From contig JAFMJV010000003.1 of the NCBI GenBank assembly GCA_017853275.1, forward strand, positions 64,649 through 128,648: DNA of 64,000 nucleotides. Direction: 5' to 3'. The notes beneath the pieces are model-generated. The model was not told the origin of the DNA. It saw nothing but the letters and a program-made list of their open reading frames with translations, and did no database searches. The stretch comes from Chloroflexota bacterium (GTDB lineage: Bacteria > Chloroflexota > Limnocylindria > Limnocylindrales > CSP1-4). Shown one piece after another: positions 1-43,968 of this stretch. The translations under genes and the position numbers were made by a program. The stretch's first letter is position 1. Every line of letters starts with the position of its first letter.

Positions 1-110
1 CCACGGCCACCCCGGCCCGGGGGCCGCAGGACGCGCCTTCGCTATCCTGCGTTCATCCTCGGGCGGCGCCGGCGCGCCGCCCTGTCCCCTTCCAGAGCGA
101 GGTGAGATGA
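1..110 (+). CDS. 3' end of an unidentified upstream ORF (partial)
   Basis: Frame is open from the window edge to TGA at 108-110, which overlaps the ATG at 107 of the next gene (ATGA coupling). The roughly 35 visible residues carry no recognisable motif. Confidence 0.2.
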   Translation, partial: TATPARGPQDAPSLSCVHPRAAPARRPVPFQSEVR

Positions 111-8353: not shown

Positions 8354-9318
8354 GCCTCGAGGTCCTCCTCGCCGCAGGCGTGGCGAGCGGTACCGTCCTC
8401 CTCCTCGCCGCGCTCGGCGAGATCCTCACGGAGCGCTCGGGGATCCTCAACCTCGGGGTGGAGGGGATGCTCTTCGTGGGCGCCCTGGCCGGCTTCAAGG
8501 TGGGCCTCGAGACCGGGAACCCGTGGCTCGGGCTCGTGGCGGCGGTCCTCGCGGGGACGGCGCTCGCCCTCCTCCATGCCTTCGTCACCGTCCGGCTGGG
8601 GGCGGACCAGACGGTCTCCGGGCTCGCCCTCACGCTGCTCGGGACCGGGGTCGCGATGGTCCTCGGCGAAGGGCTCGCGGGCGGCGGGACCGGCGCCCTC
8701 CTCCCCACCCTGACGATCCCGCTCCTCTCCGCGATCCCCTTCCTCGGGCCGGTCCTCTTCACGGACCAGTCGATCATGGTCTACGTGGGGCTCCTCCTCG
8801 TGCCGCTCTGCTGGTGGTGGGTGGAGCGGACCCGGCCGGGGCTCCATCTCCGCGCGGTCGGCGAGAACCCCACCGCGGCGGACGCGCTCGGCGTCAACGT
8901 GATCCGGACGCGCGTCATCTACACCGCCCTCGGCGGCGCGCTCGTGGGTCTCGCGGGAGCCACGATCACGATGGCGATCAGCCCCGGCTGGAACGCGAAC
9001 CAGACGACCTCGGGCCAGGGCTGGATCGCGGTCGGGCTCGTGATCTTCGCCCGCTGGAGCCCGTGGCGGGCGCTCCTCGGGGCGTGGCTCATCGCGACGA
9101 TCCGCCGCCTCGCCCTCGACCTCCAGGGCCCGGACGAGATCCTCGGCATCCCGAACGTCTTCCACCTCTACCAGCCGGCGACCTTCTTCCTGGACATGCT
9201 CCCCTACCTCCTCGTCATCCTCGTCGTCGTCCTCGGCTCGCGGGAGGCGATCCGGCGGCGGCTCGGGGCACCCGCGGCGCTCGGCGTGCCGTGGCACCGG
9301 GGGGAGCGGGGGCTCTAG
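8350..9318 (+). CDS. ABC transporter permease (BMP-family system)
   Basis: ATG 8350 (MSLEVLLAAG...) lies in frame within track ORF 7678-9318. The product is polytopic and the gene ends at TAG 9316-9318, inside repeat copy 1. Confidence 0.8.
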   Translation: MSLEVLLAAGVASGTVLLLAALGEILTERSGILNLGVEGMLFVGALAGFKVGLETGNPWLGLVAAVLAGTALALLHAFVTVRLGADQTVSGLALTLLGTGVAMVLGEGLAGGGTGALLPTLTIPLLSAIPFLGPVLFTDQSIMVYVGLLLVPLCWWWVERTRPGLHLRAVGENPTAADALGVNVIRTRVIYTALGGALVGLAGATITMAISPGWNANQTTSGQGWIAVGLVIFARWSPWRALLGAWLIATIRRLALDLQGPDEILGIPNVFHLYQPATFFLDMLPYLLVILVVVLGSREAIRRRLGAPAALGVPWHRGERGL

Positions 9319-9359
9319 GGTCCGGTCAGCCCTCGGTGGATCGGGTGAGCGCGGCCGCG
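9246..9359. repeat. 114-bp direct repeat, copy 1 (left border of the 11-kb insert)
   Basis: Identical by eye, base for base, to 20391-20504. It contains the genuine 3' end of the permease gene plus a relic of the 3' end of the minus-strand protease gene. Confidence 0.9.
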
Positions 9360-9361
9360 GC

Positions 9362-9417
9362 TTGACAACGGCGATCGGGATGCCGCAGTCTCTGTGCCTC
9401 ATGTCGAAAGCGCTTTC
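9362..9417 (+). promoter_or_regulatory. Candidate promoter (TTGACA -35) and LacI-type operator palindrome GAAAGCGCTTTC
   Basis: TTGACA at 9362-9367 follows the repeat end by 2 nt. A perfect 12-bp palindrome at 9406-9417, with the CG-centred AANCGNTT core typical of LacI-family operators, begins 3 nt after the ATG at 9401-9403. Confidence 0.45.
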
Positions 9418-10453
9418 ATCCCGGGCACGACCACCGGCCGAGGACCTTCGCCGCCCCACGATCGATGACGTCGCGCGGCGAGCCGGAGTCTCGATCTCGA
9501 CGGTGAGCCGGGTCATGAACGGGTCGGCCCCGGTCGTCGATGCAAAGGCGGATCGCGTGCGCCGCGCGATGCGCGAGCTCGAGTACCGGCCGGCGACCGC
9601 CGCGCAGGTGCTCGCACGCCGACGCACGAAGACGGTCGGCCTCCTCCTCTCCCGGATCTCCGGTGACTACGTCGCCTCGCTCCTGAGGGGGATCGAGACG
9701 GAGGTCTCCGCCGCCGGCATGAACCTGCTCGTGAGCACAGCGGGGGCGGGGCGCTCGTCGGCGCTCGGCGAGCACAACACGGACGGGCTCCTCGTCTTCG
9801 CAGACGGGATGAGCGACGACGACCTTCGGTTCGCCTGGGCGAGACGGCATCCCGTCGTCCTGCTGCATCGCACGCCGCCCCGGGATCTCGCGATCCCCAG
9901 CGTCACGGTGGAGAACAAGGGGGGTGCCCGCCAGCTGGTCGACCACCTGATCGAGGCGCACGGAGCCCGGTCGATCGCCTACCTCCGCGGCCCTGCGGGG
10001 CATGAGGACTCCCGCTGGCGCGAGCTCGGCTATCGCGATTCGCTCGCTGCCCACGGGATCACCGTCGACCCGGACCTGATCGGGGATGGAGGCTTCACGA
10101 GCTCCGGGGGCGAACGACAGGCCGCCGCCTGGATCGCCGGTGGGCTCGCGTTCGACGCCGTCTTCGCCGGGGACGACGCTGCAGCGGTCGGCGTCCTGCA
10201 GGCGCTCCGGCGTCTGGCGCCGGAGCGGCGAGTCGCGGTCGTCGGCTTCGATGACACACCCCTCGCCCGCCATGTGGCGCCGTCGCTCACGACGGTCCGC
10301 GCGCCGACCGAAGCGGTCGGATCGGCCGCGGTCCGAAGGCTCCTGGAGATGGGGAGCGCGGATCCGGAAGCGCCGCTCCTCACGCTGCTGCCGACACACA
10401 TCGTCCTGCGCCGGTCGTGCGGGTGTCCCGGGGACCGGGAGGAGCAGGGATGA
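9401..10453 (+). CDS. LacI-family transcriptional regulator
   Basis: HTH TIDDVARRAGVSISTVSRVMNG followed by a periplasmic-binding-fold effector domain. Start is uncertain: ATG 9401 is preferred over TTG 9362 from the track. Confidence 0.85.
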   Translation: MSKALSSRARPPAEDLRRPTIDDVARRAGVSISTVSRVMNGSAPVVDAKADRVRRAMRELEYRPATAAQVLARRRTKTVGLLLSRISGDYVASLLRGIETEVSAAGMNLLVSTAGAGRSSALGEHNTDGLLVFADGMSDDDLRFAWARRHPVVLLHRTPPRDLAIPSVTVENKGGARQLVDHLIEAHGARSIAYLRGPAGHEDSRWRELGYRDSLAAHGITVDPDLIGDGGFTSSGGERQAAAWIAGGLAFDAVFAGDDAAAVGVLQALRRLAPERRVAVVGFDDTPLARHVAPSLTTVRAPTEAVGSAAVRRLLEMGSADPEAPLLTLLPTHIVLRRSCGCPGDREEQG

Positions 10454-11748
10454 TCAAGGTCGCGGTGATCGGCGGCGGATCGACCTACACGCCCGAGCTC
10501 ATCCAGGGGTTCCTCGCCCGTCGGGGACGGCTCCCGGTCGGAGAGGTCTGGCTCGTGGATCCCGACCCGGACCGCCTCGCGGTGGTGGGGGGGCTGACGG
10601 CCCGGATGGTGGCGGCGGCCGGCGGCCCGTTCCGCGTGGTCCTCACCGGCGATCGCCGTGCGGCGATCTCGGGTGCGGACTACGTGGTGACGCAGCTTCG
10701 GGTGGGCCGGATGGCGGCTCGCGAGGGAGACGAGCAGCTCGGGCGGCGCCACGGCCTGGTCGGCCAGGAGACGACCGGTGTGGGTGGGTTCGCGAAGGCG
10801 CTGCGCACGGTCCCGGTCATCCTCGAGATCGCTGCGGAGATCGCCGCGGAGGCACCGGCGGCACTCCTGGTGAACTTCACGAACCCCGCCGGCCTCGTCA
10901 CCGAGGCCCTCTTCCGCCACGCGCCACAGGTCCGGGCGGTCGGCGTCTGCAACGGACCGCCCCATCTGCAGATGGAGATCCTCGCTGCTCTCGCGGACGG
11001 AGGGCCGGCGATCGACCCGGAGCGCAGCGCCCTCGAGACCCTCGGCCTGAACCACCTCGGGTGGTACCGCGGCTTCCGCCTTGACGGGCGGGACCTGTGG
11101 CCGGAGGTGATGGACCGCTGGATCCGGCGGATGCGTGAGACCCCCGATCCTGCGTGGGACCCGGACCTGCTCGCCGCGCTGGGCATGATCCCGAACTCCT
11201 ATCTCCGCTACTTCTATGACACCGCGCGGGTCGTGGACGAGCAGGCCGGATCGCCGACACGCGCGAGCACGGTGATGGCGATCGAAGCGGAGCTTCTCCG
11301 TGATTACGCCGACCCGGACCGCGTGGCGCCGCCGGCCACACTGATGCAGCGGGGGGGCGCCTACTACTCCACGGTCGCCACGCAGCTGATCGACGCCCAT
11401 CACAACGGACGCGGAACCACGCACATCGTCAACGTCCGTCACGCGGGCGCCGTCCCCGGATGGGACCCGTCATGGGTCCTCGAGCTCCCCGCTCGCGTAG
11501 ACCGGGACGGGATCCACCCGATCCCGACCGAGCCGCTGCCGGCGGTCGTCGCGGGGCTCCTCCATCACGTGAAGGCCTACGAGCTGCTCGCCGTGGAAGC
11601 GGCCGTCCACGGAGACCCTCGGGTGGCCCTCCAGGCGCTCATCGCGCACCCGCTCGGGCCCTCGATGCGCCGAGCCGAGGCCCTGCTCGAGGACCTTCTG
11701 CAGACGAACGCCACCTACCTGCCGCGCTTCCGGACGCCGGCGCCATGA
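10450..11748 (+). CDS. GH4 family 6-phospho-beta-glucosidase (ChbF/CelF-like, NAD/Mn dependent)
   Basis: MIKVAVIGGGSTYTPELIQGF...VVTQLRVG...GQETTGVGGFAKALRTVPV...NFTNPAG...GVCN closely parallels E. coli ChbF as I recall it. Confidence 0.85.
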   Translation: MIKVAVIGGGSTYTPELIQGFLARRGRLPVGEVWLVDPDPDRLAVVGGLTARMVAAAGGPFRVVLTGDRRAAISGADYVVTQLRVGRMAAREGDEQLGRRHGLVGQETTGVGGFAKALRTVPVILEIAAEIAAEAPAALLVNFTNPAGLVTEALFRHAPQVRAVGVCNGPPHLQMEILAALADGGPAIDPERSALETLGLNHLGWYRGFRLDGRDLWPEVMDRWIRRMRETPDPAWDPDLLAALGMIPNSYLRYFYDTARVVDEQAGSPTRASTVMAIEAELLRDYADPDRVAPPATLMQRGGAYYSTVATQLIDAHHNGRGTTHIVNVRHAGAVPGWDPSWVLELPARVDRDGIHPIPTEPLPAVVAGLLHHVKAYELLAVEAAVHGDPRVALQALIAHPLGPSMRRAEALLEDLLQTNATYLPRFRTPAP

Positions 11749-12767
11749 GGATCTTCCTGGGTGGCGACCTCGGCGGGACCAAGTCCCATCTCCTGCTCGC
11801 GGACGAGGCGGGACGCGTCCTCGGCTTCGCGGCAGGGGGCGGGGCGAACCACGAGGCGGTGGGATACGGCGCGGTCACGGAGGTGGTCCGGTCGCTCTTC
11901 CGGGAGGTCCTCGCATCGGCGGGCATCGGCGCCACCCGGGTCACCGCCGCGGGCTTCGGCATCGCCGGTCTCGACTGGGGATCGGAGGAGCCGGCCCAGC
12001 TGGCAGCCCTCCGGGCGGCGGGGGTCGATGGCTTCCCGGTCACGGTCGTGAACGACGCGGTGGTCGGCCTCCTCGCGGGGGCGACGGAAGGGTGGGGGAT
12101 CGGCCTCGTCTCGGGGACCGGGTGCAACTGCTGGGGCCTCGATCGCGATGGTCGACTCGGACGGGTCCTGGGCATGGGTGCGCGGGTCGGGGAGTTCGCG
12201 GGGGCCTCCGCGCTCGTGACGCGGGCCGTCTGGGCGATCTCGCGAGCGGCCACGCGACGCGGGCCCGAGACCGCCCTCACGGATGCCTTCCTCACCGCCT
12301 TTCGGGCCGCTGATGCGCTCGCCTTTCTCGAGGGCTACTGCGAGGAGCGCTATCCGGTGGATGCCTCCCTCGCCCCGCTGGTCTTCTCCGTCGCCGAAGC
12401 CGGCGACCGGGTGGCGACGGAGTGCATCGCGTGGGCAGGGCGCGAGCTGGCCGACCTCGTCACGGGTGTCGCCCGGCAGCTCGACCTGACCGGCTCGTCC
12501 TTCGAGCTCGTCCTGATCGGGAGCCTCTTCCGGGGCGGACCCCTCCTCCTCGACCCACTCCTCGCCGCGGTCCGTGCGGAAGCCCCGGGCGCGCGGACAG
12601 TCACCCTCTCCGGTCCCCCGGTCATCGGCGGCGTGGTCCTCGCCATGCGCCGCGCGGGGATCGATCGACGCGATATCGACCGGCAGCGGCTTGCCGGGTC
12701 GATCCAGACGGACCGGTCGCCGGTGCTCGCCCCGCGACCCCATGAGCTCGAGGAGGTCTACTCATGA
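11745..12767 (+). CDS. BadF/BadG/BcrA/BcrD-type ATPase, N-acetylglucosamine-kinase-like sugar kinase
   Basis: MRIFLGGDLGGTKSHLLLADEAG...GGGANHEAVGY and GLVSGTGCNCWG are ASKHA-fold phosphate motifs. ATGA overlap at 11745. Confidence 0.7.
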   Translation: MRIFLGGDLGGTKSHLLLADEAGRVLGFAAGGGANHEAVGYGAVTEVVRSLFREVLASAGIGATRVTAAGFGIAGLDWGSEEPAQLAALRAAGVDGFPVTVVNDAVVGLLAGATEGWGIGLVSGTGCNCWGLDRDGRLGRVLGMGARVGEFAGASALVTRAVWAISRAATRRGPETALTDAFLTAFRAADALAFLEGYCEERYPVDASLAPLVFSVAEAGDRVATECIAWAGRELADLVTGVARQLDLTGSSFELVLIGSLFRGGPLLLDPLLAAVRAEAPGARTVTLSGPPVIGGVVLAMRRAGIDRRDIDRQRLAGSIQTDRSPVLAPRPHELEEVYS

Positions 12768-14041
12768 CGACGCTCGGCGATCCCGTGGGGACGAGCACGC
12801 TCCCTGCGATCCTCGGCGGACCGCGCGCGCGGCAGGACGACTACCCCGTCTGGCCCGAGCATGACGAGCGCGACGTTGAGGCAGTGGCGCGCGTCGTCCG
12901 CTCCGGGCGCTGGGGTGGCTTCCCGTTCCCCGGACCCGAGACGGCTCGCTTCGCGGAGCGGTTCGCTGCGCTCCAGGGGGGCGGGACCGCCGTCCCGATG
13001 GTCAACGGCACGATCACGATGGAGGTCGCGATGCGCGCGGCCGGCATCGGCTGGGGTGACGAGGTGATCGTCCCCGCCTACACCTTCCAGGCAACGGCGG
13101 CGGCTCCGATGGCGGCAGGGGCGCTGCCGGTCATCGTGGACATCGACCCCGAGACCTACTGCATCGACCCCGCAGCGGTGGAGGCGGCGATCACGCCCCG
13201 CACGCGCGCGATCATCCCCGTCCACCTGGGCGCCCAGATGGCGGACATGGACGCGATCATGCGCATCGCCGAGGCCCACGACCTGATCGTCGTGGAGGAC
13301 TGCGCGCATGTGCCCGGCGCTGCCTGGCAGGGACGCGGTGCCGGGACGATCGGCCACTTCGGCTCCTTCAGCCTCCAGTCATCGAAGACGCTCACCTCGG
13401 GCGAGGGCGGCGTCCTCCTCTGCCGCACCCCCGAGCTCGCCCGCCGTGCGAGCTCGATCATCGACTGCGGGCGACCCAAGGACCCCGCCGGGATCGAGTA
13501 CACGCAGGGTTCGAACTACCGGATGACGGAGCTGCAGGCCGCCCTCGCCAATGTCGGCCTGGACCGCCTCCCCGGGCAGATCGCCGAGCGCGCGGAGAGC
13601 CGCGCCTACGCGGACCGGGTCCTCGGCTCCGTCCCCGGGGTCCGGATCCTGCCCGCCGACCCCCGCATGACGATCCCTGCCTTCTACCGCTACGTCTTCG
13701 CCGTGGACCCGGACCGCTTCGGCCTCGATCACCTTCAGGTCACCCGGGCGCTCGCGGCCGAGGGGGTCCCGTCCTGGATCGGGTACGAGGCGATGCATCG
13801 GTACACGCTCTTCCAGCCGCAGACGACGCGCCTGCCGGTCCCGACCGCCTTCCCCGAGTACTTCCGGTTCGAGACGATGTCCTTCCCGGAAGCGGAGCGG
13901 GCCGCCGAGCGTGAGGCTGTCTGGCTCGATGAGCGGATCTTCCGCGCGGGGACGGACGGGGTGGACGCGGTGGTCGATGCGCTCCGGAAGATCCAGGCGC
14001 ACGCGCCCGCCATCGCCGGCCACCTGGGAGGAGCCGCCTGA
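12764..14041 (+). CDS. DegT/DnrJ/EryC1/StrS-family PLP-dependent sugar aminotransferase
   Basis: Family blocks NGTITMEVAMRAAGIGWGDEVIVPAYTF, IIPVHLGAQ and SFSLQSSKTLTSGEGG, the last containing the putative PLP lysine. Confidence 0.85.
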   Translation: MTTLGDPVGTSTLPAILGGPRARQDDYPVWPEHDERDVEAVARVVRSGRWGGFPFPGPETARFAERFAALQGGGTAVPMVNGTITMEVAMRAAGIGWGDEVIVPAYTFQATAAAPMAAGALPVIVDIDPETYCIDPAAVEAAITPRTRAIIPVHLGAQMADMDAIMRIAEAHDLIVVEDCAHVPGAAWQGRGAGTIGHFGSFSLQSSKTLTSGEGGVLLCRTPELARRASSIIDCGRPKDPAGIEYTQGSNYRMTELQAALANVGLDRLPGQIAERAESRAYADRVLGSVPGVRILPADPRMTIPAFYRYVFAVDPDRFGLDHLQVTRALAAEGVPSWIGYEAMHRYTLFQPQTTRLPVPTAFPEYFRFETMSFPEAERAAEREAVWLDERIFRAGTDGVDAVVDALRKIQAHAPAIAGHLGGAA

Positions 14042-14042
14042 G

Positions 14043-14840
14043 ATGACCGCGGGTGAGCTCGCGGGAGAGGTCGCCGTCGTGACCGGGGCCGCGCAGGGGA
14101 TCGGGGAGGCGATCGCGCGGCGGCTGGCCGCGGCCGGGGCGCGCGTCGCGCTGGCAGACCTCCAGGCGGAGAAGGCGGAGGGGGTCGCGGCTTCGATCCG
14201 CGCGGCAGGCGGCGAGGCGCTCGCCTTCCCCGTGGATATCGCCGATGGAGCCTCCCTCGACCGGCTCCGGTCACAGGTCCGGTCGGCCTTCGGCCCGGTC
14301 ACGATCCTCGTGGCGAACGCGGCCCGGATCACGATCCGGCCCTTCCTCGAGCTCACGGACGCGGAGTGGGAGGCGACGGTCGCGACGAACGTGACGGGGA
14401 CCTACCTCACGATCCGCCGTTTCTGCGATGAGATGATCGACGCACATCGCGGCAGCATCATCGTCATCTCGTCGGTGAACGGCCTGCGGGGACAGGTCGG
14501 GCTCTCGGCGTACAACGTCACAAAGGCTGCCCTCGTGATGCTCGCCCGGACGGTCGCCCTGGAGCTGGCCGGTCATGGGATCCGCGTGAATGCGATCGCT
14601 CCCGGGGACATCGCCACGGCCATCGTCGACCAGGTCGCGGACCAGGACGGAGCCCAGGGGACGATCCCGCTCCGGCGCTATGGCCGTCCCGAGGAGGTCG
14701 CCGAGACAGCCCTCTTCCTCGCCTCGGCACGCGCTGCATACACGACCGGCTCCGTCGTGACCGTCGATGGCGGTCTGGACGCACAGCTCTATCCGGGCGA
14801 CATCTTCGCCTCGGGAGAGGCTCCGGGGGCGAACGGATGA
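14043..14840 (+). CDS. Short-chain dehydrogenase/reductase (SDR)
   Basis: TGAAQGIGEAIA Rossmann motif together with SSVNG, a YNVTK catalytic Y/K and PGDIAT. Start ATG 14043 comes 2 nt after the preceding stop. Confidence 0.85.
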   Translation: MTAGELAGEVAVVTGAAQGIGEAIARRLAAAGARVALADLQAEKAEGVAASIRAAGGEALAFPVDIADGASLDRLRSQVRSAFGPVTILVANAARITIRPFLELTDAEWEATVATNVTGTYLTIRRFCDEMIDAHRGSIIVISSVNGLRGQVGLSAYNVTKAALVMLARTVALELAGHGIRVNAIAPGDIATAIVDQVADQDGAQGTIPLRRYGRPEEVAETALFLASARAAYTTGSVVTVDGGLDAQLYPGDIFASGEAPGANG

Positions 14841-16102
14841 CCGACGGGCTCACCGCGTCGCTGGAGGCCAGCATCAGGGAGATCCCGGTGGTGGACTGCC
14901 ACGAGCACACCTTCCTGCCGGACCGGCGGCCCGCGCGGGTGGATCTCGGGACGCTCGTAGCCGGCTCCGACCTCGCGGACGACCTGATCTCCGCCGGGAT
15001 GCCCGCCGAGGCCCGTGCCCGTCTCGGGTATGCCGACGCCGCGCCCTTCCTCGGCCACGTGCGGAACACGGGCTTCAGCCGCAGCCTGATGGCGGCCTTC
15101 GCGGAGCTCTTCGACTTCCGCGAGGAGACGATCTCGGCGACGGACTGGGAAGCGCTCTCGGAGCTCCTGGCAACGGCGAACACGCGACCCGGCTGGTACG
15201 ACGACGTCCTCGGGCGCGGCCGGGTGACGACCATCCTCCGGATCCAGGGCGATGAGCCGGACCCGCTCGCAGTGCCACGGCGCTGGTTCCGGCCGATCCT
15301 GCGGATCGACCCGTGGATCGTGGAGGCGGGGAGCACGACGGAGCGGGAGCGGATCGCCGAGCGCGCCGGGGGGCGTGGAACGACCCTCGCGGGCTACCTC
15401 GAGGCGCTCGACGGGTGGTTCTCGGCAGCGGCCGCGGGCGGAGCGGTCGGGATCAAGTCGATGCTCGCCTATCGTCGGCCGCTGACCCACGGGCGACCCA
15501 CGGCCGAGGAGGCCGAGCGCCTCTTCCAGGCGAAGCACCGCTCGGCAGCCGAGGAGCGTGCCCTCGAGGACGCGATCGTCCACGCCGTGGCGGAGCGTGC
15601 CGGCAGAGCCGGCCTCCCGTGGCAGATCCACGTGGGGATCGGGTCATGGCAGACGAACATCGTCGGCAACGGCGATCCCGTCATGCTCGATCCCCTCGTG
15701 TCCGCCCACCGGGGGACCACCTTCGTCCTCCTCCATGGGGGCTACCCCTACCTCGGACAGATCGGCTCCATGGCGAAGAACCACCCGAACGTGGTCATCG
15801 AGTGCGGCTGGCTCGCGTATATCGCGCCGGCCGCCTACCGGCGAGCCCTCGCCGAGTGGCTGGACTCGGTCCCTGTCTCCAAGATCCTCGCGGTGGGCGC
15901 CGACTGCGCGCACGTGGAGCAGACGCTCGGGGCGCTGCTCCTGACGCGACACGACCTGGCGCGCGTGCTTGCGGAGAAGATCCGCCACGACGGCTGGTCG
16001 GAGAAGGAGGCCATATCGTCGGCCCACGCCCTGCTGGGCGGGAACGCCGGCTCGGTCTACCGCCTGGACGGCGCCGGGGGAGGGGGTGGCACGCGGGCCT
16101 GA
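14837..16102 (+). CDS. Amidohydrolase-superfamily metal-dependent hydrolase (PF04909-like)
   Basis: N-terminal VVDCHEHTF metal motif, LLHGGYPY and a C-terminal LLGGNAGSVYRL are typical of TIM-barrel amidohydrolase_2 proteins. Substrate is unknown. Confidence 0.6.
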   Translation: MTDGLTASLEASIREIPVVDCHEHTFLPDRRPARVDLGTLVAGSDLADDLISAGMPAEARARLGYADAAPFLGHVRNTGFSRSLMAAFAELFDFREETISATDWEALSELLATANTRPGWYDDVLGRGRVTTILRIQGDEPDPLAVPRRWFRPILRIDPWIVEAGSTTERERIAERAGGRGTTLAGYLEALDGWFSAAAAGGAVGIKSMLAYRRPLTHGRPTAEEAERLFQAKHRSAAEERALEDAIVHAVAERAGRAGLPWQIHVGIGSWQTNIVGNGDPVMLDPLVSAHRGTTFVLLHGGYPYLGQIGSMAKNHPNVVIECGWLAYIAPAAYRRALAEWLDSVPVSKILAVGADCAHVEQTLGALLLTRHDLARVLAEKIRHDGWSEKEAISSAHALLGGNAGSVYRLDGAGGGGGTRA

Positions 16103-16136
16103 CATCCACTTTCCCTATCCGGACCTTCACCGACCG

Positions 16137-17468
16137 ATGAGAACCGTGGGAGGAACCATGCGTCGCCGAACCCTTCGGCTCCTGATCGCCGGGCTGATCC
16201 CGGCCACGATCGCGCTCGGCGCGGTCACCGGGCCGGTCGCGGCCCAGGATCCCCAGACGATCCGCATGTGGACGTGGAGCCAGTGGAACGGGGTCACGGG
16301 CCTCGAGCCCGACGGCCAGCCGCTCGACTGGTGGCGTGCCGCCGTGGATGCGTGGGCAGCCGAGCACCCCGGCGTCACCGTCGAGATCGAGGATCTCAAC
16401 GGCCAGGACCTGGACATCAATGCGAAGTACGACACCGCCGTGGCGGCCGGGAATATCGCCGACCTCATCTGGGTGGACGAGTCGTACTTCTCCAAGTACG
16501 CGTCTGCGGACGTGCTCGCCCCGATCGACGCCTACCTGACCGAGGAGGACCGCGCGGACTTCCTCGCCAAGAACCTGGAGCTGAGCGCCGCCGACGGCAA
16601 GCAGTGGTTCTGGCCCTACATCACCCAGGGGAACCACCTGGCGATCAACGTCGATCTCTTCCGCGCCGCAGGAGCGGAGGACCTGCTTCCCAAGGCGCCG
16701 GACTACACCTGGACGTGGGATGAGTTCGTGGCAGCGGCCAAGGCCGTCACGTCGCCCGAAGCGTTCGGTGTCGGGTTCAGCACGGATGGTGCCTACACGA
16801 TGGCCGAGGCGTGGGGGGACCACCTCTACGCCCAGGGCGACGAAAGCAAGGTCACGATCAACACCCAGAACACGGTCGATGCCTTCGAAGCCCTGATCGG
16901 GCTCACGAAGGACGGGACCGCCTTCCCGGGCTCCGGCACCGGTGCGGTGGACCTCGCGACAAACTTCCTCCAGGGCCGGATCGCCATGATCAACTCGTGG
17001 GGGATCATCAACGACATCGAGAAGCTCCCGGAGGGGGAGCGGTTCGACGCGATGCTCGTCCCCTTCCCGAGCGGGCCGAACGGCGAGCCGCTCGTCTGGG
17101 GTGGCGTCCATGGCCTGGCCGTCACGAAGCAGCCGAGCGCGGAGCGTGAGGCCCTCGTCATGGACCTTGCGCACTACCTCACCAGCTTCGAGGCGCTCAA
17201 GGACGTGCGCGCGTGGAGCAAGCCGGCCCGGCACTCGATCATCGCAGCCCAGGAAGCGGACGAGTCCTACCTCTTCCGCGACTTCCTGCCGATGTTCGAG
17301 GCGTACACGAACGTCGCGATCCCGCTCATGGGCCAGGGGCCGAACGCGGTCCCGGTCCTGATCAAGTACGAGCCCCTCGTCGAGGCGATGTTCACCGGGG
17401 ACCTGCCCCCCGCTGAAGCGCTCGCGCTCTTCGAGGCGGACGCGAACATGATCCTCGGAGCGCCCTGA
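16137..17468 (+). CDS. ABC transporter extracellular solute-binding protein (family 1, carbohydrate type)
   Basis: Signal-like RRRTLRLLIAGLIPATIALGAVTGPVAAQ followed by a family-1 SBP-like body. Start is ATG 16137 (or 16158) inside track ORF 15969-17468. Confidence 0.8.
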   Translation: MRTVGGTMRRRTLRLLIAGLIPATIALGAVTGPVAAQDPQTIRMWTWSQWNGVTGLEPDGQPLDWWRAAVDAWAAEHPGVTVEIEDLNGQDLDINAKYDTAVAAGNIADLIWVDESYFSKYASADVLAPIDAYLTEEDRADFLAKNLELSAADGKQWFWPYITQGNHLAINVDLFRAAGAEDLLPKAPDYTWTWDEFVAAAKAVTSPEAFGVGFSTDGAYTMAEAWGDHLYAQGDESKVTINTQNTVDAFEALIGLTKDGTAFPGSGTGAVDLATNFLQGRIAMINSWGIINDIEKLPEGERFDAMLVPFPSGPNGEPLVWGGVHGLAVTKQPSAEREALVMDLAHYLTSFEALKDVRAWSKPARHSIIAAQEADESYLFRDFLPMFEAYTNVAIPLMGQGPNAVPVLIKYEPLVEAMFTGDLPPAEALALFEADANMILGAP

Positions 17469-17482
17469 TCCACGGCTTCCAC

Positions 17483-17512
17483 CCCCGGGGCGGCCATCCG
17501 GCCGTCCCGGGG
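17483..17512 (+). terminator. 13-bp stem-loop (one G-U pair) between the SBP and permease genes
   Basis: ccccggggcggcc (17483-17495), atcc loop, ggccgtcccgggg (17500-17512). Intercistronic position matches mRNA-stability hairpins that follow SBP genes. Confidence 0.45.
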
Positions 17513-17538
17513 GGCGACCCATTCCCATCGAGGCATCG

Positions 17539-18489
17539 ATGACGGAGACGAACACAGCGACCGGAGACCGCACCCTGGGCCGACGGATCTGGCGCGCCCG
17601 GTGGGCCTATCTCTTCGTGCTCGTCCCCGCGGTCCTCTTCCTCGTCTTCGAGCTTTACCCCTTCATCCGGGCCACGGGCTACAGCGTCTCGTCGTGGACG
17701 ATCCGCGGCCCGGGTGAGTTCGTGGGCCTGGAGAACTACGCGGCGATCTTCCGGGACCGGATCTTCTGGAAGGCGCTCATGAACACGATCGCGTACGCGG
17801 TGATCGTGGTGGGGGGCAGCGTGGGTCTCTCGCTCGTCCTCTCCGCCGCGATGTACCCGCTGGCGACGCGCGCGAAGTCCTTTTTCAAGATGGCCTTCTA
17901 CCTGCCGGCGGTCGCTTCGATCGTCGTGGTCGCGCTGGTCTGGCGCTGGATGTACCAGCCTGCCTTCGGCCTCTTCAACCACCTCGCGGCGATCATCGGG
18001 ATCGGTCCGTTCGGCTTCCTCACGGACACCTCGCAGTCGCTCGCCTCGATCATGCTCATGCAGATCTTCTCCAACCCCACGATCGGGATCGGCGCCTCGG
18101 TCATCCTCGTGCTCGCGGCGATGAACAGCATCCCGACCCACCTCTACGAGGCGGCGATGCTGGACGGGGCGGGGACCGTCGCGCGCTTCCGGCGCATCAC
18201 CGTCCCCCTTCTCCGGCCGACCGTCGTCTTCCTCGTGATCATCGGGACGGTGGAGGCATTCCGGGAGTTCACGGCGATCTACCTGATGACCAGCTCCTCG
18301 TCGGGCCAGGCGCTGTCGGGGGGCGGGCCCTTCTACTCGACGACGACGCTCGCCTACTACACCTACGTCCAGGCCTTCCTCGCCCGGCAGGTCGGCGTGG
18401 CATCGGCGGCAGCGATGGTCCTCCTCGCGATCGTCTTCGTCGTGGCGGTCATCCAGTTCCGCCGGTTCAACACCGAGATCGAGTACTAG
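17539..18489 (+). CDS. Carbohydrate ABC transporter permease (MalF/UgpA-like)
   Basis: Six predicted TM segments and an EAA-loop-like YEAAMLDGAGTVARFRRITVPLLRP. Confidence 0.85.
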   Translation: MTETNTATGDRTLGRRIWRARWAYLFVLVPAVLFLVFELYPFIRATGYSVSSWTIRGPGEFVGLENYAAIFRDRIFWKALMNTIAYAVIVVGGSVGLSLVLSAAMYPLATRAKSFFKMAFYLPAVASIVVVALVWRWMYQPAFGLFNHLAAIIGIGPFGFLTDTSQSLASIMLMQIFSNPTIGIGASVILVLAAMNSIPTHLYEAAMLDGAGTVARFRRITVPLLRPTVVFLVIIGTVEAFREFTAIYLMTSSSSGQALSGGGPFYSTTTLAYYTYVQAFLARQVGVASAAAMVLLAIVFVVAVIQFRRFNTEIEY

Positions 18490-18498
18490 GGGAGAACG

Positions 18499-19389
18499 AT
18501 GGCGACCTTCGATCGGACGCGGCCATCCGCGCAGGCGGATCTGCCCGGGGGAGGACGCGGGCGGCTTCGCCCCGATTCGTTGCCGCGGATCCTGGCCTAC
18601 GTGATCGTGGGATCGATGGCGATCGCCTCGCTCATGCCCCTTTACTGGATGTTCACGACATCCCTGAAGGACCAGGCGGCCTACATGGCACAGCCGCCGG
18701 AGATGCTCCCCGGCGATCCGACCCTCGCGAACTTCGGGCAGCTCTTCGCGAACCCGAACATGCTCCGGTGGATCTTCAACAGCGCGTTCGTCGCCCTCTC
18801 GGTGACCGGCCTCAACCTGGTCTTCGCGACCCTGGCCGGGTATGCCTTCGCGAAGATGTCCTTTCCGGGGCGGCGCTGGATGTTCTGGATCTACCTCGCG
18901 ACGATGATGGTCCCCTTCCAGGTCACGATCTTCGCCCTCTTCCAGCTGATGGTCACGATCGGCTGGGTGAATACCTACTGGGCGCTGATCATCCCGGCGA
19001 TGGCCCTTCCCTACAACGTCTTCCTGATGCGCCAGTTCATGCATACGCTGCCCAACGAGATCCTGGACGCCGGGCGGATCGACGGTTGCTCAGAGATCCA
19101 GCTGGTTCGCAGGGTCGTCGTACCCATGAGCACGAATGGTCTTGCCGTCGTGGGGATCTTCACCTTCATCACCACCTGGAACAACTTCCTGTGGCCGCTG
19201 GTGATCCTGAACACGGAGGAGATGCGGACCCTTCCGATCGCGCTCTCGACCTTCCAGAGCACGAACGAGACGGACTACGGCCTGCTCATGGCCGGGGGTG
19301 TCCTGATGGCGATCCCGATGTTCATGATCTTCTTCGCGTTCCAGCGGTACTTCCTCCAGGGAGTCACCTTCGGTGGCCTGAAGGGGTAG
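18499..19389 (+). CDS. Carbohydrate ABC transporter permease (MalG/UgpE-like)
   Basis: Polytopic product with the EAA-loop-like motif LDAGRIDGCSEIQLVRRVVVPMS. Confidence 0.85.
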   Translation: MATFDRTRPSAQADLPGGGRGRLRPDSLPRILAYVIVGSMAIASLMPLYWMFTTSLKDQAAYMAQPPEMLPGDPTLANFGQLFANPNMLRWIFNSAFVALSVTGLNLVFATLAGYAFAKMSFPGRRWMFWIYLATMMVPFQVTIFALFQLMVTIGWVNTYWALIIPAMALPYNVFLMRQFMHTLPNEILDAGRIDGCSEIQLVRRVVVPMSTNGLAVVGIFTFITTWNNFLWPLVILNTEEMRTLPIALSTFQSTNETDYGLLMAGGVLMAIPMFMIFFAFQRYFLQGVTFGGLKG

Positions 19390-19393
19390 GAGG

Positions 19394-20386
19394 ATGACGA
19401 TGCGCCTCGGCTTCTCGGGAACGGGTTACATCGCGAAGATCCATGCGGACGCGGCGCAGGCGATCGGCGCCCGGGTCGCGTCCGTCGCGAACCACCGCCC
19501 GGAGTCCCGGGCGGCGTTCGCCGAACGCTTCGCGGTCGACCGGACCTTCGAGAACGTCCCCGATCTCCTCGCGGCCGGTGGCATCGACGGCCTCGTCGTG
19601 TGCACGCCGAACGCGCTCCACGCACCCGATACGCTGGCCGCGCTCGCGGCCGGGATCCCCGTCCTCGTCGAGAAACCGATGGCGCGGACCGCCGTCGAGG
19701 CGCAGACGATGCACGATGCGTCCGTCGCGTCCGTCGTGCCCCTCATGGTCGCCCACTGCTGGCGGTTCGACGCCGAGGCCCTCTGGCTGCGCGACGAGGT
19801 CCGCGCCGGCCGGCTGGGAAGGATCATCCGGACGAAGGGCTACGGGGTCCATGTCGACTGGGGCCCGAAGGGCTGGTTCACCCAGTCCGCCCTGGCGGGT
19901 GGCGGAGCGCTCGCAGACATGGGGATCCACGCGCTGGACACGGTCCGCTTCCTGCTCGGTGACCCGCTGCCGGAGCGCGTCTACGCGGCGGTGGGGACCT
20001 ACTACCGCGAGATCGACGTGGACGATACCGGGGTGATCGTCGTGACGTGGCAGGGCGGGATCACCTCGGTGATCGAATCGGGCTGGTTCCAGCCCCAGGC
20101 TGACGGCCCGGAAGCGGCGACCCAGCTTTACGGGACCGAGGGCTATGGACGCCTCTACCCCACCTCCCGCAAGGCATCGGGAGGGGAGCTCGTCGACCCG
20201 GGCTTCGTCTTCCCGCGGAAGCCGCACTGCCTCCCGGAGATGTACCAGGCGCAGATGCGCGCCTTCCTCGAGGTGATCCGCACCGGCCGCGTGGAGGAAG
20301 GGCGGTCGGACGTGAGCCTGGTGAACGCGCGGATCGTGGATGCGACCTACACGAGCTCGCAGAGAGGCGAGGTGGTCCACCTCTGA
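19394..20386 (+). CDS. Gfo/Idh/MocA-family NAD(P)-dependent oxidoreductase
   Basis: N-terminal Rossmann segment MRLGFSGTGYIAKIHA and the VLVEKPMART (EKP) motif. GGTAGGAGG RBS precedes the start; the stop at 20384-20386 lies 4 nt before repeat copy 2. Confidence 0.85.
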   Translation: MTMRLGFSGTGYIAKIHADAAQAIGARVASVANHRPESRAAFAERFAVDRTFENVPDLLAAGGIDGLVVCTPNALHAPDTLAALAAGIPVLVEKPMARTAVEAQTMHDASVASVVPLMVAHCWRFDAEALWLRDEVRAGRLGRIIRTKGYGVHVDWGPKGWFTQSALAGGGALADMGIHALDTVRFLLGDPLPERVYAAVGTYYREIDVDDTGVIVVTWQGGITSVIESGWFQPQADGPEAATQLYGTEGYGRLYPTSRKASGGELVDPGFVFPRKPHCLPEMYQAQMRAFLEVIRTGRVEEGRSDVSLVNARIVDATYTSSQRGEVVHL

Positions 20387-20390
20387 TCCG

Positions 20391-20504
20391 GGCGATCCGG
20401 CGGCGGCTCGGGGCACCCGCGGCGCTCGGCGTGCCGTGGCACCGGGGGGAGCGGGGGCTCTAGGGTCCGGTCAGCCCTCGGTGGATCGGGTGAGCGCGGC
20501 CGCG
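20391..20504. repeat. 114-bp direct repeat, copy 2 (right border of the 11-kb insert)
   Basis: Identical to 9246-9359. It holds a relic of the permease 3' end (including TAG 20461-20463) and the genuine 3' end of the protease gene (stop 20471-20473). Confidence 0.9.
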
Positions 20505-20953
20505 ATCGCCGCGGCGGCATCCCGCAGGGCGCCCTCCACCTCGGGGGAGAGCGGGTCCCCCATCCCGAAGGAGCGCCCGCCGATCCCCACGAAGCTCCCG
20601 GCCGGGACGCGCCCGCCGATGAGCGCCGCGAGGGCGATCGTCTCCTCCAGGGGAAGCTCGTGGGAGGAGCGCGGCCTGGGCCCGGGGCCTGCGGCACGTG
20701 CCGTCCCCATCCCCGCCAGCTCCGCGAGCGGCCGGATCCAGAGCGTCCCCGGCGGGATCCCCGCCACCGCGTCCACGATCACCGTCTCCGCCTCGGCAGG
20801 GAGGTCGAGGAGGAGCTGGACGTCCAGGCTCCCGGCGGGGATCACGCGGACGCCCGCGAGGAGCGCCGGGTCGAGGAGGTCGGCAGCCCGGAAGGCGGCG
20901 TCATCGTCCCCGCGGGCCGGCTCGCCGCACAGGACGAGCGTGCGCTCGGCCAC
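20471..20953 (-). CDS. [NiFe]-hydrogenase maturation endopeptidase (HoxW/HycI-like)
   Basis: 160-aa ORF reading LVLCGEPARGDDDAAF...VIVDAV, typical of hydrogenase maturation proteases. It lies 4 nt downstream of the large-subunit gene. Confidence 0.75.
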   Translation of the reverse strand: MAERTLVLCGEPARGDDDAAFRAADLLDPALLAGVRVIPAGSLDVQLLLDLPAEAETVIVDAVAGIPPGTLWIRPLAELAGMGTARAAGPGPRPRSSHELPLEETIALAALIGGRVPAGSFVGIGGRSFGMGDPLSPEVEGALRDAAAAIAAALTRSTEG

Positions 20954-20956
20954 CGC

Positions 20957-22288
20957 TCAGGCGCGGTCGATCGTGAGATCGAGGAAGTGGGTCGCGCAGC
21001 TGATGCAGGGGTCGTAGGAGCGGATCATCTGCTCCAGGCGGTGGGTCGCCTCGGCATGGGGGAGCGCCAGGACCTCGCGCGCGGCGACCACGAGATCGGC
21101 CTCGATCGCCGCCTGGTTCTGGCTCGTGGGCGGGACGATCTGCGCCTCCCGGATCCGGCCCCGATCGTCCACCACGTAGCGGTGGAAGAGGAGGCCGCGC
21201 GGGGCTTCCGTGGCCCACGCGGCGACCCCGGCGCGCGGCTCCCAGGCGGCGAGCGGGACGGAGGGCGGCACGTAGGCATCGATGAGGTCGAGCGCCTCCG
21301 CGTAGGCGTGGATGAGCTCCACCCCGCGGGCCACGATCGAGGCGTAGATGTTCGTCCGGATGAGCTCCGCGAAGCCGCTCTGGTCGAGCGCCTCGCGGGC
21401 GAGCGGGTGGAGCGTCCCGCCGGTGAGGGTGACGCGGGCTGCGGGGCCGAGGAGATAGGCGCCCTTCCCGTCCAGGGTCCGGGCATGGAGCGCGTTGCTC
21501 CCCTCCACCTGGTGCTCCTCGAAGATCGAGCGCCAGTCCGCCATCGGGATGTCGATCCCGTCCGAGCTCACGATCCGGCCGTGGTTGAAGGGGTACTCGT
21601 CCGGGTGGCGGAGGGAGACGAGGCGAGGCTCGCGCGCGAAGGCGGGCATCGGGAGGCTCGCCACGAAGCGGGTCGTCTCCTGCGCGATCGCGAGCCCGTC
21701 GGCGAGCGCGGGCCGGAGGGCGAGGAGCTCGGAGCGGCGCGGGGCGCGGCTCCAGCCGCCCACGCGGACGGAGACCGGGTGGATCGGCCGGCCGCCGAGG
21801 AGGCGGAGGAGGTCGTTCCCGGCCTTCTTCGCGCGGAGCGCCGCCTCCACCCGCTCCCGGTGGTCCGCGGCCATCGCGATCGCGGAGGGATAGCCGAGGA
21901 AGTCCGGCGCGTGGAGGAGCCAGATATGGAGGGCGTGGCTCTCGATCCACTCGCCGCAGTAGAGGAGCCGCCGGAGGGCGCGCACGGAGGGATCGATCGC
22001 GACGCCGAAGAGGTCCTCGAAGGCGTGGACCGCGCTCATCTGGTACGCCACGGGGCAGATCCCGCAGATGCGCGCGACGATGTCGATCACCTCGTCCGGC
22101 GTCCGATCCACCACGAGCGCCTCGAAGTAGCGCGGCGCCTCGAAGATCCCGAGGCGCGCCTCCACGATCTCGCCGCCGCGGACGACGAGGTGGAGCGAGC
22201 CCTCCCCCTCGACGCGGGTCAGCTCACCGACGGCATAGGTGCGGTCCTCGGGGACGGGGGCCGGGGTGGGGGTGGGACGCTCGGTCAT
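20957..22288 (-). CDS. hyhL: [NiFe]-hydrogenase large (alpha) subunit, group 3b-like
   Basis: N-terminal RICGICPVAY and C-terminal DPCISCATH Ni-Fe ligand motifs. The product is 443 aa from ATG 22288 (MTERPT...), and ATGA overlaps the small-subunit stop. Confidence 0.85.
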   Translation of the reverse strand: MTERPTPTPAPVPEDRTYAVGELTRVEGEGSLHLVVRGGEIVEARLGIFEAPRYFEALVVDRTPDEVIDIVARICGICPVAYQMSAVHAFEDLFGVAIDPSVRALRRLLYCGEWIESHALHIWLLHAPDFLGYPSAIAMAADHRERVEAALRAKKAGNDLLRLLGGRPIHPVSVRVGGWSRAPRRSELLALRPALADGLAIAQETTRFVASLPMPAFAREPRLVSLRHPDEYPFNHGRIVSSDGIDIPMADWRSIFEEHQVEGSNALHARTLDGKGAYLLGPAARVTLTGGTLHPLAREALDQSGFAELIRTNIYASIVARGVELIHAYAEALDLIDAYVPPSVPLAAWEPRAGVAAWATEAPRGLLFHRYVVDDRGRIREAQIVPPTSQNQAAIEADLVVAAREVLALPHAEATHRLEQMIRSYDPCISCATHFLDLTIDRA

Positions 22289-30934: not shown

Positions 30935-30965
30935 GCGCTGACCGGCCTCCAGGAGCGAGCGGAGA

Positions 30966-39446: not shown

Positions 39447-39486
39447 GCGCGCTCCACCGACCGGGAGCGGCCGGGGATGGCCCCGC

Positions 39487-43961: not shown

Positions 43962-43968
43962 TCCTTCC

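Follow-up and report, generated by a model that had tools for sequence, protein, structure and literature searches.

Among the described systems closest to the operon considered here, a set of ten genes in a 64,000-nucleotide stretch of Chloroflexota DNA (contig JAFMJV010000003.1, positions 64,649 to 128,648; the whole stretch is called the window and its numbering is used throughout), the chbBCARFG operon of Escherichia coli takes up its substrate by the phosphotransferase system (PTS), is controlled by the AraC-type regulator ChbR and has no aminotransferase, Gfo/Idh/MocA oxidoreductase (Gfo below), short-chain dehydrogenase/reductase (SDR) or TIM-barrel enzyme of the kinds present in the window. 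The two operons share a ChbF-type enzyme of glycoside hydrolase family 4 (GH4), which in the window is 37% identical to ChbF over its full length; a YdjC/ChbG-family gene stands beside the GH4 gene in 34 related loci, and the glycone is probably glucosamine 6-phosphate (GlcN-6-P). Uptake in the window operon is, in contrast, by an ATP-binding cassette (ABC) importer (in relatives, by major facilitator superfamily (MFS) transporters) combined with a soluble kinase, its regulator is of the LacI type, a YdjC gene is absent from it, and no PTS genes were found among the window open reading frames (ORFs) examined.

The kinase of the operon is similar to BadF, NagK and MurK and differs in this from Klebsiella BglK, which we take to be a ROK-family protein; by analogy with BglK, it may act on disaccharides. 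BglK, considered together with Thermotoga BglT, exemplifies a non-PTS cytoplasmic kinase that supplies the 6-phospho-glycoside, and it was used for making the 6-phospho-glycosides needed by BglT and GlvA (PMC10628242).

Pairs consisting of a Gfo and a DegT-family aminotransferase are found in NtdABC (kanosamine synthesis in Bacillus subtilis), GnnA/GnnB, WbpB/WbpE and RifL/RifK, where they exchange a hydroxyl for an amino group via a keto sugar; NtdABC does so on 6-phosphates, and a putative 6-kinase is present in the window operon. These systems are biosynthetic, whereas the window pair belongs to an inducible importer operon and presumably runs in reverse, NtdA matches the window DegT protein with 95 bits as compared to 233 bits for NeoB, and a kinase is found where NtdABC has the NtdB phosphatase. 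Among solved proteins the window DegT protein is closest to NeoB, BtrR/BtrS, RbmB and RifK, which act on nucleotide-free substrates and match it over its full length including a C-terminal extension, but the DegT family occurs, with about 65-82% conservation, in many non-producer Chloroflexota and no 2-deoxy-scyllo-inosose (DOI) or inositol-phosphate synthase, glycosyltransferase, aminoglycoside, resistance or export gene is present among the ten genes or in their flanks.

The E. coli ycjQRS system is a LacI- and ABC-containing operon in which Gfo/Idh/MocA enzymes participate in keto-glycoside catabolism. Levoglucosan and 3-keto-glycoside routes are likewise encoded by LacI and ABC operons, with Gfo/Idh/MocA enzymes making or reducing keto-glycosides in the catabolic direction (PMC7676230, PMC10628242). 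In all of these the ketone arises by oxidation, whereas in the window operon it would be made by a transaminase, and their TIM-barrel partners, which are eliminases or epimerases of the sugar-phosphate-isomerase fold, have no equivalent here. The barrel protein that is present resembles, instead, the uronate isomerases UxaC and Bh0493 in fold (TM score 0.7-0.8) and in having an SDR neighbor, as with the SDR-type fructuronate reductase of the B. subtilis YjmF type; it differs from them by its low identity (15-17%) and by its family keeping a fuller set of metal ligands (HxH, K, H, H, D).

The window operon is thus not a chb system, as it has no PTS, ChbR or in-window ChbG, and it is not an aminoglycoside cluster. 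By analogy, it would work like a hybrid in which a chb-like GH4 enzyme (with a deacetylase in relatives) is joined to BglK-type phosphorylation and to a reversed amino/hydroxyl exchange of the NtdC/NtdA type. What is new is the combination of known enzyme families in an inducible sugar-utilization operon: a first-pass annotation had suggested an undescribed catabolic route, and the open full-text literature yielded no characterized counterpart, only related chemistry (3-keto-glycosides, levoglucosan, BglK/BglT). The gene set recurs in Chloroflexota. With confidence that is about evenly balanced, we consider the insert to be a self-contained, LacI-autoregulated catabolic module serving a beta-linked glycoside of an amino sugar of the hexosamine type.

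The operon, its flanking repeats and its regulation

Related loci, designated by L numbers, were analyzed by tblastn, by homology clustering of all ORFs and by Pfam/NCBIfam scans of cluster representatives. The features of the operon and of its borders are as follows.

9401-10453, plus strand: LacI-family repressor, helix-turn-helix and periplasmic-binding-protein-like domains (Pfam LacI and Peripla_BP_3)
10450-11748, plus strand: GH4 glycosidase of the NAD+/Mn2+ type, ChbF/LicH/Gan4C/BglT (6-phospho-beta) branch (Glyco_hydro_4 and 4C, motifs)
11745-12767, plus strand: BadF/BcrAD-type sugar kinase (BcrAD_BadFG, 68 bits)
12764-14041, plus strand: DegT-family pyridoxal phosphate-dependent aminotransferase (DegT_DnrJ_EryC1, 280 bits)
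14043-14840, plus strand: classical SDR (adh_short, 191 bits)
14837-16102, plus strand: amidohydrolase-superfamily TIM barrel (Amidohydro_2, 43 bits, the weakest of the Pfam assignments)
16158-17468, plus strand: CUT1-type solute-binding protein (SBP), signal peptide with RRR (SBP_bac_1; alternative start 16137)
17539-18489, plus strand: ABC permease, UgpA/MalF-like (BPD_transp_1)
18499-19389, plus strand: ABC permease, UgpE/MalG-like (BPD_transp_1)
19394-20386, plus strand: Gfo/Idh/MocA oxidoreductase (GFO_IDH_MocA N and C domains, PF01408 and PF22725)
9246-9359: left copy of a perfect 114-nucleotide direct repeat (100% identity, spacing 11145)
20391-20504: right copy of the repeat, beginning 4 nucleotides past the Gfo stop codon
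9362-9367, plus strand: TTGACA, a -35-like hexamer formed by the opening bases of the insert; L009, L089 and L007 have it as well ahead of LacI
9405-9418: LacI-type palindrome CGAAAGCGCTTTCA, candidate operator, 4 nucleotides after the LacI ATG at 9401
17482-17513, plus strand: 14-bp perfect G+C hairpin downstream of the SBP gene and ahead of the first permease gene (75-nucleotide stretch, -41.7 kcal/mol, z -2.7)

The tight plus-strand operon of named families (9401-10453 to 19394-20386, i.e., 9401-20386) reported in the first-pass annotation was recovered with the same Pfam families, all calls for the ten proteins being above the Pfam gathering thresholds. Start and stop codons overlap as ATGA at four junctions (10450, 11745, 12764 and 14837), and the remaining intergenic gaps are 1, 55, 70, 9 and 4 nucleotides. 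The arrangement is not due to chance: the ten-gene order is repeated on the independent contigs L009, L089, L091 and L007.

The 114-nucleotide repeats enclose the operon exactly and delimit a module of ~11.0 kb, inside which no integrase or transposase was found. The left copy consists of the final 73 nucleotides of an upstream BPD_transp_2 gene, which encodes a nucleoside-type ABC permease, and 41 further nucleotides, while the right copy extends into a convergent hydrogenase-maturation gene. The perfect repeat bracketing the operon therefore bears out the earlier suggestion that the operon is an insert; it looks like the product of a single-crossover (Campbell-type) event and implies that the insertion was recent. 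The G+C content of the window is 72%, and the operon transporter genes are 5-8 points below the flanks. An uninterrupted permease-hydrogenase junction, which would represent the empty site, had no match in metagenome contigs; nothing follows from this, since the search demanded 40 exact bases.

The candidate LacI operator of the operon is TGAAAGCGCTTTCG. TTGACA together with GAAAGCGCTTTC is found upstream of the LacI gene in relatives: the palindrome is identical in L009 (region ~1195-1245) and has one mismatch in L089 (~4530-4590), where it forms a tandem, slightly degenerate pair, while in L007 (~7880-7935) TTGACA is kept and the palindrome is only degenerate. Conservation of these two elements ahead of the LacI gene argues for autoregulation, and the position of the palindrome 4 nucleotides after the ATG suggests a leaderless LacI transcript or one with a very short leader. 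A generic scan of 9100-20700 revealed no full sigma-70 promoter or terminator, and the hairpin at 17482-17513 probably serves as a stabilizer or attenuator of RNA within the operon. The public LacI gene call (312 amino acids; 6752-7690 of locus L001) starts at an internal ATG and has lost the helix-turn-helix domain.

Enzymes and importer of the operon

The GH4 protein matches PF02056 with 176 bits and PF11975 with 160 bits and contains the NAD-binding motif GGGS at position 8 and the motifs CNGP at 167, NH at 201 and SYL at 250, all of which align with ChbF, the last three with its CNIP, NH and SYL. A Cys-Asn (CNxP) motif at this place is distinguished from the Cys-Asp of alpha-specific phospho-enzymes. 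Its top solved relatives are 6-phospho-beta-glucosidases (2e-99), and the scores decrease from 6-phospho-beta enzymes (337, 333 and 237 bits) through 6-phospho-alpha enzymes (156-118 bits) to non-phospho enzymes (86-65 bits, the comparison set being alpha-glucosidase and alpha-galacturonidase). The proposed identity of the protein as a ChbF-like 6-phospho-beta-glucosidase is thereby upheld, and by its place among these relatives it would depend on a 6-phosphate.

The best solved relatives of the kinase are MurK, which phosphorylates N-acetylmuramic acid (MurNAc) and N-acetylglucosamine (GlcNAc), human NAGK and a Sulfolobus hexokinase. It had been proposed that ABC uptake and a cytoplasmic kinase together feed a 6-phospho-specific GH4 enzyme, and this scheme has its precedent in BglK, BglT and GlvA. 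It is less certain that disaccharides are what the kinase phosphorylates: among the related loci described below, the kinase follows DegT and Gfo more tightly than it follows GH4, so the kinase may also have a monosaccharide substrate.

The DegT protein has its catalytic Lys208 within SLQSSK, and the lysine is invariant in 25 of 25 sequences; its S-x-x-x-K context is that of a true aminotransferase and not of a ColD/E1-type dehydratase, which has a histidine. The 2-deoxy-scyllo-inosose aminotransferases 5w71, which we take to be NeoB, and 2c7t align over residues 24-410 with 233 bits, and 5w70 and AHBA synthase (1b9i, 208 bits) align end to end with 203-208 bits; the matches to NeoB, BtrR, RbmB and AHBA synthase include the C-terminal extension of ~50 residues. 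Aminotransferases acting on nucleoside diphosphate (NDP) sugars reach at most 165 bits in alignments that end near residues 345-361, and the best NCBIfam match has 179 bits as against a cut-off of 423. Judged by these end-to-end matches and by the shorter and lower NDP-sugar ones, the DegT protein belongs to the long, nucleotide-independent NeoB/BtrR/RbmB/AHBA-synthase type. It exceeds the other proteins of the module in conservation; its relatives number thousands, the best 120 of them being 67-100% identical, and the sub-family carries the label "dTDP-4-amino-4,6-dideoxygalactose transaminase" in public annotation.

The Gfo protein contains the EKP motif at residues 93-95 (Lys94) as well as Asp175 and His179, which form the Asp-x3-His pair. 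The end of its strand beta2 (..VANHRPESR) has no acidic residue, so the use of NADP(H) is possible. Its best relatives in the Protein Data Bank (PDB), aldose-aldose oxidoreductase and 1,5-anhydrofructose reductase, are like all the others weak matches (93-60 bits). The best NCBIfam model, inositol 2-dehydrogenase IolG, aligns end to end with 119 bits and does not reach its cut-off of 355. At the level of family the DegT and Gfo proteins agree with a reverse NtdABC-like route, but NtdA itself scores only 95 bits and the Gfo has no specific relation to any C3 enzyme.

The SDR has TGxxxGxG at position 14, the residues Ser143, Tyr157 and Lys161, and an Asp near the end of beta2 that suggests NAD as the cofactor; it scores 221 bits against the NCBIfam glucose 1-dehydrogenase subfamily, just over the cut-off of 215. 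The family of the adjacent barrel protein is small (78 relatives in a database of 5.8 billion sequences); its invariant residues are HxH (H22, H24) after strand 1, K207, H265, H300 and, after strand 8, D356. Its predicted model (pLDDT 92.9) is closest to 4i6v and 2qpx, structures with no known function, and then to uronate isomerases, a similarity that is at the level of fold; the protein has no sequence match to UxaC and no NCBIfam match. The barrel gene always adjoins the SDR gene in loci of the window type and also in a relative with 28% identity, so the pairing is older than the operon. This distant relative lies, in L093/L094, next to a divergent SDR gene and a gene for a PhyH-type dioxygenase. 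With a uronate-isomerase-like fold and an SDR partner, the barrel protein may be an isomerase rather than the amidohydrolase_2-type hydrolase that it was first labeled as.

The CUT1 importer is present in the operon as an SBP and two permeases, the corresponding ATPase being encoded elsewhere, a correction to the earlier description of a CUT1 ABC importer. The best similarity of the window SBP (49 bits) is too weak to hint at a ligand, while the SBP of a minimal variant of the operon resembles binders of beta-mannobiose, cellodextrin and sophorose. A MalK-like ATPase gene (ABC_tran and TOBE_2) is located at 62461-63636 on the minus strand, within a second ABC uptake cluster (56559-63636, minus strand) that also encodes an SBP, a fused double permease (755 amino acids) and a class-III aminotransferase. 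This ATPase could serve the CUT1 system of the operon too.

Related loci, a proposed route and its rivals

A scan with one genome per species yielded 80 DegT loci at 63-82% identity, mostly from Anaerolineae; all but one are labeled as Chloroflexota metagenome-assembled genomes and one as Bacteroidota. Co-occurrence was counted in the 45 Chloroflexota loci where the sequence upstream of the DegT ortholog extends for 8 kb or more. The kinase and Gfo are each present in 35 of the 45 and the GH4 ortholog (57-62% identity) in 22; all three occur in 16 loci and none in 3, always on the strand of DegT. The cassettes in these loci are same-strand with DegT as the last gene.

Several types of cassette can be distinguished. 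The window type, LacI-GH4-kinase-DegT-SDR-barrel-ABC-Gfo, is syntenic in L009, L089, L091 and L007 with 57-86% protein identity. L007 and L089 are European Nucleotide Archive (ENA) contigs in which numerous frameshifts split the genes for GH4, Gfo, the barrel and a NagB-like protein; they look like uncorrected long-read assemblies, in which apparent fusions or losses are unreliable. The minimal type, LacI-ABC-(YbaK-like)-Gfo-GH4-kinase-DegT, is exemplified by L012, L023, L039 and L074. In the large Anaerolineae type, the YdjC/ChbG-family deacetylase gene comes right after the GH4 ortholog (the 34 loci mentioned above), PIG-L/BshB-like deacetylases are found in 14 loci, and a ceramidase-N-like amidase gene directly precedes DegT in 29; MFS_2 transporters, GH1 or GH5 enzymes and a second GH4 paralog resembling the alpha-galacturonidase LplD are also present, and some cassettes have in addition a GalK-like kinase, a nucleotidyltransferase and an epimerase.

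The large cassettes within the set L012-L086 (e.g., L049 1827-11269, L038 282-11266 and L044 274-11269) contain two or three GH4 paralogs, YdjC, one or two PIG-L deacetylases and one or two ceramidase-N-like amidases, each of the latter with its own MFS_2 transporter; a gene for a YbaK/tRNA_edit-like protein overlaps the start of Gfo, and a glycerol-1-phosphate-dehydrogenase-like iron-containing alcohol dehydrogenase (Fe-ADH) is encoded as well. This gene content hints at a multiply N-acylated, possibly aminoacylated amino sugar as the substrate of the large cassettes.

Genes for amino-sugar deamination are found at some of these loci. A NagB-II/GlmS-isomerase-like SIS protein is encoded directly after DegT in L005 (10001-12376), L008 (10001-12311) and L026 (~10001-12600), in the first of which DegT and the SIS gene form a pair alone, away from any glycosidase or kinase, and in L089 a frameshifted remnant of the NagB/Pgl family abuts the window-type operon. 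Apart from this remnant, canonical NagA and NagB are absent from all cassette loci and from the window.

The earlier proposals of a catabolic context and of a link to amino sugars both gain from this comparison. The first agrees with a LacI gene preceded by a conserved operator, an importer of its own and the absence of glycosyltransferase and nucleotide-sugar genes from the operon; the second with a kinase nearest to MurNAc/GlcNAc kinases and with the ChbG-family deacetylase and NagB-II deaminase of related loci. The adjacency of GH4 and YdjC, which is that of chbF and chbG, together with the NagK/MurK-like kinase and GlcN-6-P deaminases, points to a GlcNAc or glucosamine (GlcN) unit ending as GlcN-6-P. 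Since uptake is by ABC or MFS transporters and not by a PTS, the soluble kinase must supply the phosphate. The order kinase-amidase-DegT with an added oxidoreductase looks like a parallel of NagK/NagA/NagB, for an amine that isomerase-type deaminases would leave in place; NagB-type genes next to DegT argue against DegT being merely a substitute for NagB. An amino-sugar catabolic function is the best available interpretation of the operon and one that comparative genomics strengthens.

The steps that we infer for such a route would be the following. The glycoside would be imported by the CUT1 system with an ATPase from elsewhere, and the BadF-type kinase would phosphorylate O-6 of its gluco-configured unit. 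The ChbF-type GH4 enzyme would then cut the 6-phospho-beta-glycoside by NAD+/Mn2+-dependent redox-elimination, giving a hexose or hexosamine 6-phosphate and the second unit. The DegT enzyme would transfer the amine that is beyond the reach of isomerase-type deaminases to a 2-oxo acid, and Gfo, probably with NAD(P)H, would reduce the resulting keto sugar to an ordinary sugar; these two steps would follow the logic of NtdC/NtdA, GnnA/GnnB or IolG/StsC in reverse. The remaining product would be handled by the SDR and barrel sub-module acting as isomerase plus reductase or as dehydrogenase plus lactonase. The catabolic direction of the Gfo and DegT pair, which had been suggested at the outset, fits the regulator, operator and importer and the lack of nucleotide-sugar genes.

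To our knowledge, every characterized Gfo/Idh/MocA-DegT pair that works on hexoses (NtdC/NtdA, GnnA/GnnB, WbpB/WbpE, RifL/RifK) acts at C3, and GH4 chemistry oxidizes the 3-hydroxyl and so requires it to be free. As a 3-amine would block GH4, we have a weak and tentative preference for an extra amine at C3 of a gluco-hexose, i.e., for a substrate of the kanosamine or 2,3-diamino-glucose type. It is further conceivable, if rather unlikely, that the pair serves to unblock the substrate: an amine at C3 or C6, free or N-acylated, would make a glycoside refractory to the kinase and GH4, because GH4 must oxidize the 3-hydroxyl and needs the 6-phosphate, and DegT and Gfo would exchange the amino group for a hydroxyl via a keto sugar before phosphorylation and GH4 cleavage. 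MurNAc was rejected as a DegT substrate on chemical grounds, as a 2-keto group would not labilize the 3-O-lactyl ether.

Several observations weigh against an amino-sugar glycoside route of this kind. Beyond family placement and co-occurrence the route is inferred. The kinase is found more often with DegT and Gfo (35 of the 45 loci) than with GH4 (22) and persists in loci that lack GH4; if it is a monosaccharide kinase, GH4 would lack a phosphorylated substrate. In L031, neither GH4 nor the kinase accompanies DegT, Gfo, SDR, the barrel and the ABC system, and the existence of cassettes without any glycosidase means that part of the pathway runs on a monosaccharide and that the kinase may not phosphorylate disaccharides. 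The window operon encodes no recognized deacetylase, unless the amidohydrolase-fold protein is one, and the GalK-like kinase, nucleotidyltransferase and epimerase of some Anaerolineae cassettes point to nucleotide-sugar salvage and not to catabolism alone. As to the C3 position, the best relatives of Gfo act at C1 or C2 and all score low, and NtdA, the C3 sugar-phosphate enzyme, is a far poorer match to DegT than NeoB and BtrR are.

The alternative that survives best, though we think it improbable, is a chb-like route for chitobiose or chitosan oligomers in which DegT and Gfo replace NagB: GlcN or GlcN-6-P would lose its C2 amine by transamination, and the resulting 2-keto sugar of the glucosone type would be reduced to glucose or mannose (or its 6-phosphate), the nitrogen being kept as glutamate rather than freed as ammonia. 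No other GlcNAc beta-disaccharide is nearly as common as chitobiose, ChbF, the relative of the window GH4 enzyme, is a "monoacetylchitobiose-6-phosphate hydrolase", the chbF-chbG order is mirrored by GH4-YdjC in relatives next to a NagK/MurK-like kinase, and kinase-amidase-DegT follows NagK-NagA-NagB. The Gfo protein, too, has the length and the Lys94/Asp175/His179 spacing of 1,5-anhydrofructose reductase, a 2-keto reducer among its best matches, and the absence of canonical NagA and NagB from the cassettes (the L089 remnant excepted) would be explained. However, NagB-II beside DegT in three genomes and the NagB/Pgl-like gene in L089 would be redundant, the scheme spends three enzymes where two suffice and leaves the SDR and the barrel without a role, and we know of no DegT-family enzyme acting at C2 of a hexosamine.

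A substrate that is an aminocyclitol glycoside or a free inosamine of the rhizopine or scyllo-inosamine type is more doubtful still. A glucosyl unit would be taken off by GH4 and the kinase, the inosamine would become an inosose through DegT, and the IolG-like Gfo would turn the latter into inositol, in keeping with the 2-deoxy-scyllo-inosose aminotransferases being the best solved relatives of DegT and with IolG being the best NCBIfam model for Gfo, even if its end-to-end score is far under the family cut-off. An IolG-type dehydrogenase and a StsC/MosB-type aminotransferase link myo-inositol and scyllo-inosamine, and the Gfo-DegT pair of L031 and L087 is found without GH4. Yet genes of the IolE, IolD, IolB and IolC types are absent from the window operon and from the conserved clusters of related loci, whose deacetylases and NagB-II indicate hexosamines, and no abundant beta-glucosylated inosamine is known to us.

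About equally doubtful is an amine at C6, in a 6-amino-6-deoxy- or 2,6-diamino-hexoside as in aminoglycoside rings, which DegT would convert to a 6-aldehyde; a reductase would then restore the 6-hydroxyl for the kinase and GH4, or a dehydrogenase would form a uronate for the uronate-isomerase-like barrel and the SDR to pass to the Ashwell route. This is the only scheme that joins DegT, Gfo, the barrel and the SDR in one line, and 5w71, the top DegT relative and presumably NeoB, exchanges the 6'-amine and 6'-aldehyde of a glucosaminide. The translational coupling of the kinase gene to DegT, the aldo-keto reductase, SDR or Fe-ADH genes that adjoin DegT or Gfo in other variants and the LplD-like second GH4 paralog of relatives are also in line with it. 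The difficulties are that Gfo/Idh/MocA enzymes normally work on ring carbons, that aminoglycoside linkages are mostly alpha while the window GH4 is of the beta branch, and that 6-amino sugars are rare outside antibiotics, yet the cassette is common in Chloroflexota of sludge, groundwater and lakes. For the aminoglycoside substrate that the first-pass annotation had envisaged, the distribution of the core in environmental Anaerolineae and other Chloroflexota and its association with chb-like deacetylases make a role unlikely.

Finally, a biosynthetic or recycling module, in which DegT would run in the aminating direction and an envelope or natural-product amino sugar or aminocyclitol would be made or salvaged into nucleotide sugars, is very improbable: although DegT/Gfo pairs are classically biosynthetic, the PIG-L, DegT and Fe-ADH_2 families occur in aminoglycoside clusters too and some Anaerolineae cassettes have the GalK-like kinase, nucleotidyltransferase and epimerase, the window operon has no glycosyltransferase, sugar-nucleotide enzyme, cyclase or exporter, combines a LacI repressor and operator with an importer and two hydrolase-type enzymes, and behaves as a mobile accessory module. 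Aminoglycoside biosynthesis, considered separately, was ruled out by the absence of the synthase and glycosyltransferase.

Surroundings of the insert and significance

Directly downstream of the insert lies a [NiFe]-hydrogenase cluster (20471-25565, minus strand) encoding a HycI-type protease, the large and small subunits and a Fer4/NAD-binding diaphorase-like subunit, and it is followed by an ORF of 1886 amino acids (25700-31360, minus strand) in which the GC and AT skews are strongly positive. The chromosomal origin neighborhood occupies 38334-50749, with recF (38334-39446), dnaN (39487-40650) and dnaA (45742-47334) on the minus strand, and yidC (48018-49685) and jag (49682-50749) on the plus strand; between 48 and 50 kb the GC skew is strongly negative. 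At the other end of the window (107-4231), genes of a lipid A-type acyltransferase family, of a PHP-domain protein and of a GT4 glycosyltransferase resemble the actinobacterial PatA/PimA arrangement, found here in a Chloroflexota genome. An actinobacterial origin, which these genes and the G+C content of 72% had suggested, was rejected because the named relatives of DnaN, at 70-75% identity, are "Candidatus Limnocylindrales" and "Chloroflexota"; the host is accordingly a Limnocylindria-like member of the Chloroflexota from freshwater or soil metagenomes.

Much of the organic nitrogen of water, soil and sludge is contained in amino sugars, and among the organisms that feed on cell-wall debris Chloroflexota are prominent. 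The catabolic routes that we know of take off the C2 amine only, by NagA and NagB-type enzymes, and we are aware of no described route for the 2,3-diamino-2,3-dideoxy-glucose (GlcN3N) of lipid A, for kanosamine, for many O-antigen sugars or for aminoglycoside rings. The operon, a conserved and mobile one in which a phospho-glycosidase system is coupled to a transaminase/reductase pair, is a concrete candidate route for sugars aminated away from C2. As such it would also give a first catabolic function to a very large and highly conserved DegT sub-family and a functional context to the uronate-isomerase-like barrel family with its 78 members found. If DegT and Gfo do unblock their substrate by removing such an amine, the nucleotide-independent DegT class would have its first catabolic role. 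Sugars with a 3-amino or 6-amino group and diamino sugars, among them the GlcN3N of lipid A, sugars of the kanosamine type and aminoglycoside rings, would then also have their first described degradation, by a route that would be widespread in Chloroflexota scavenging cell debris.

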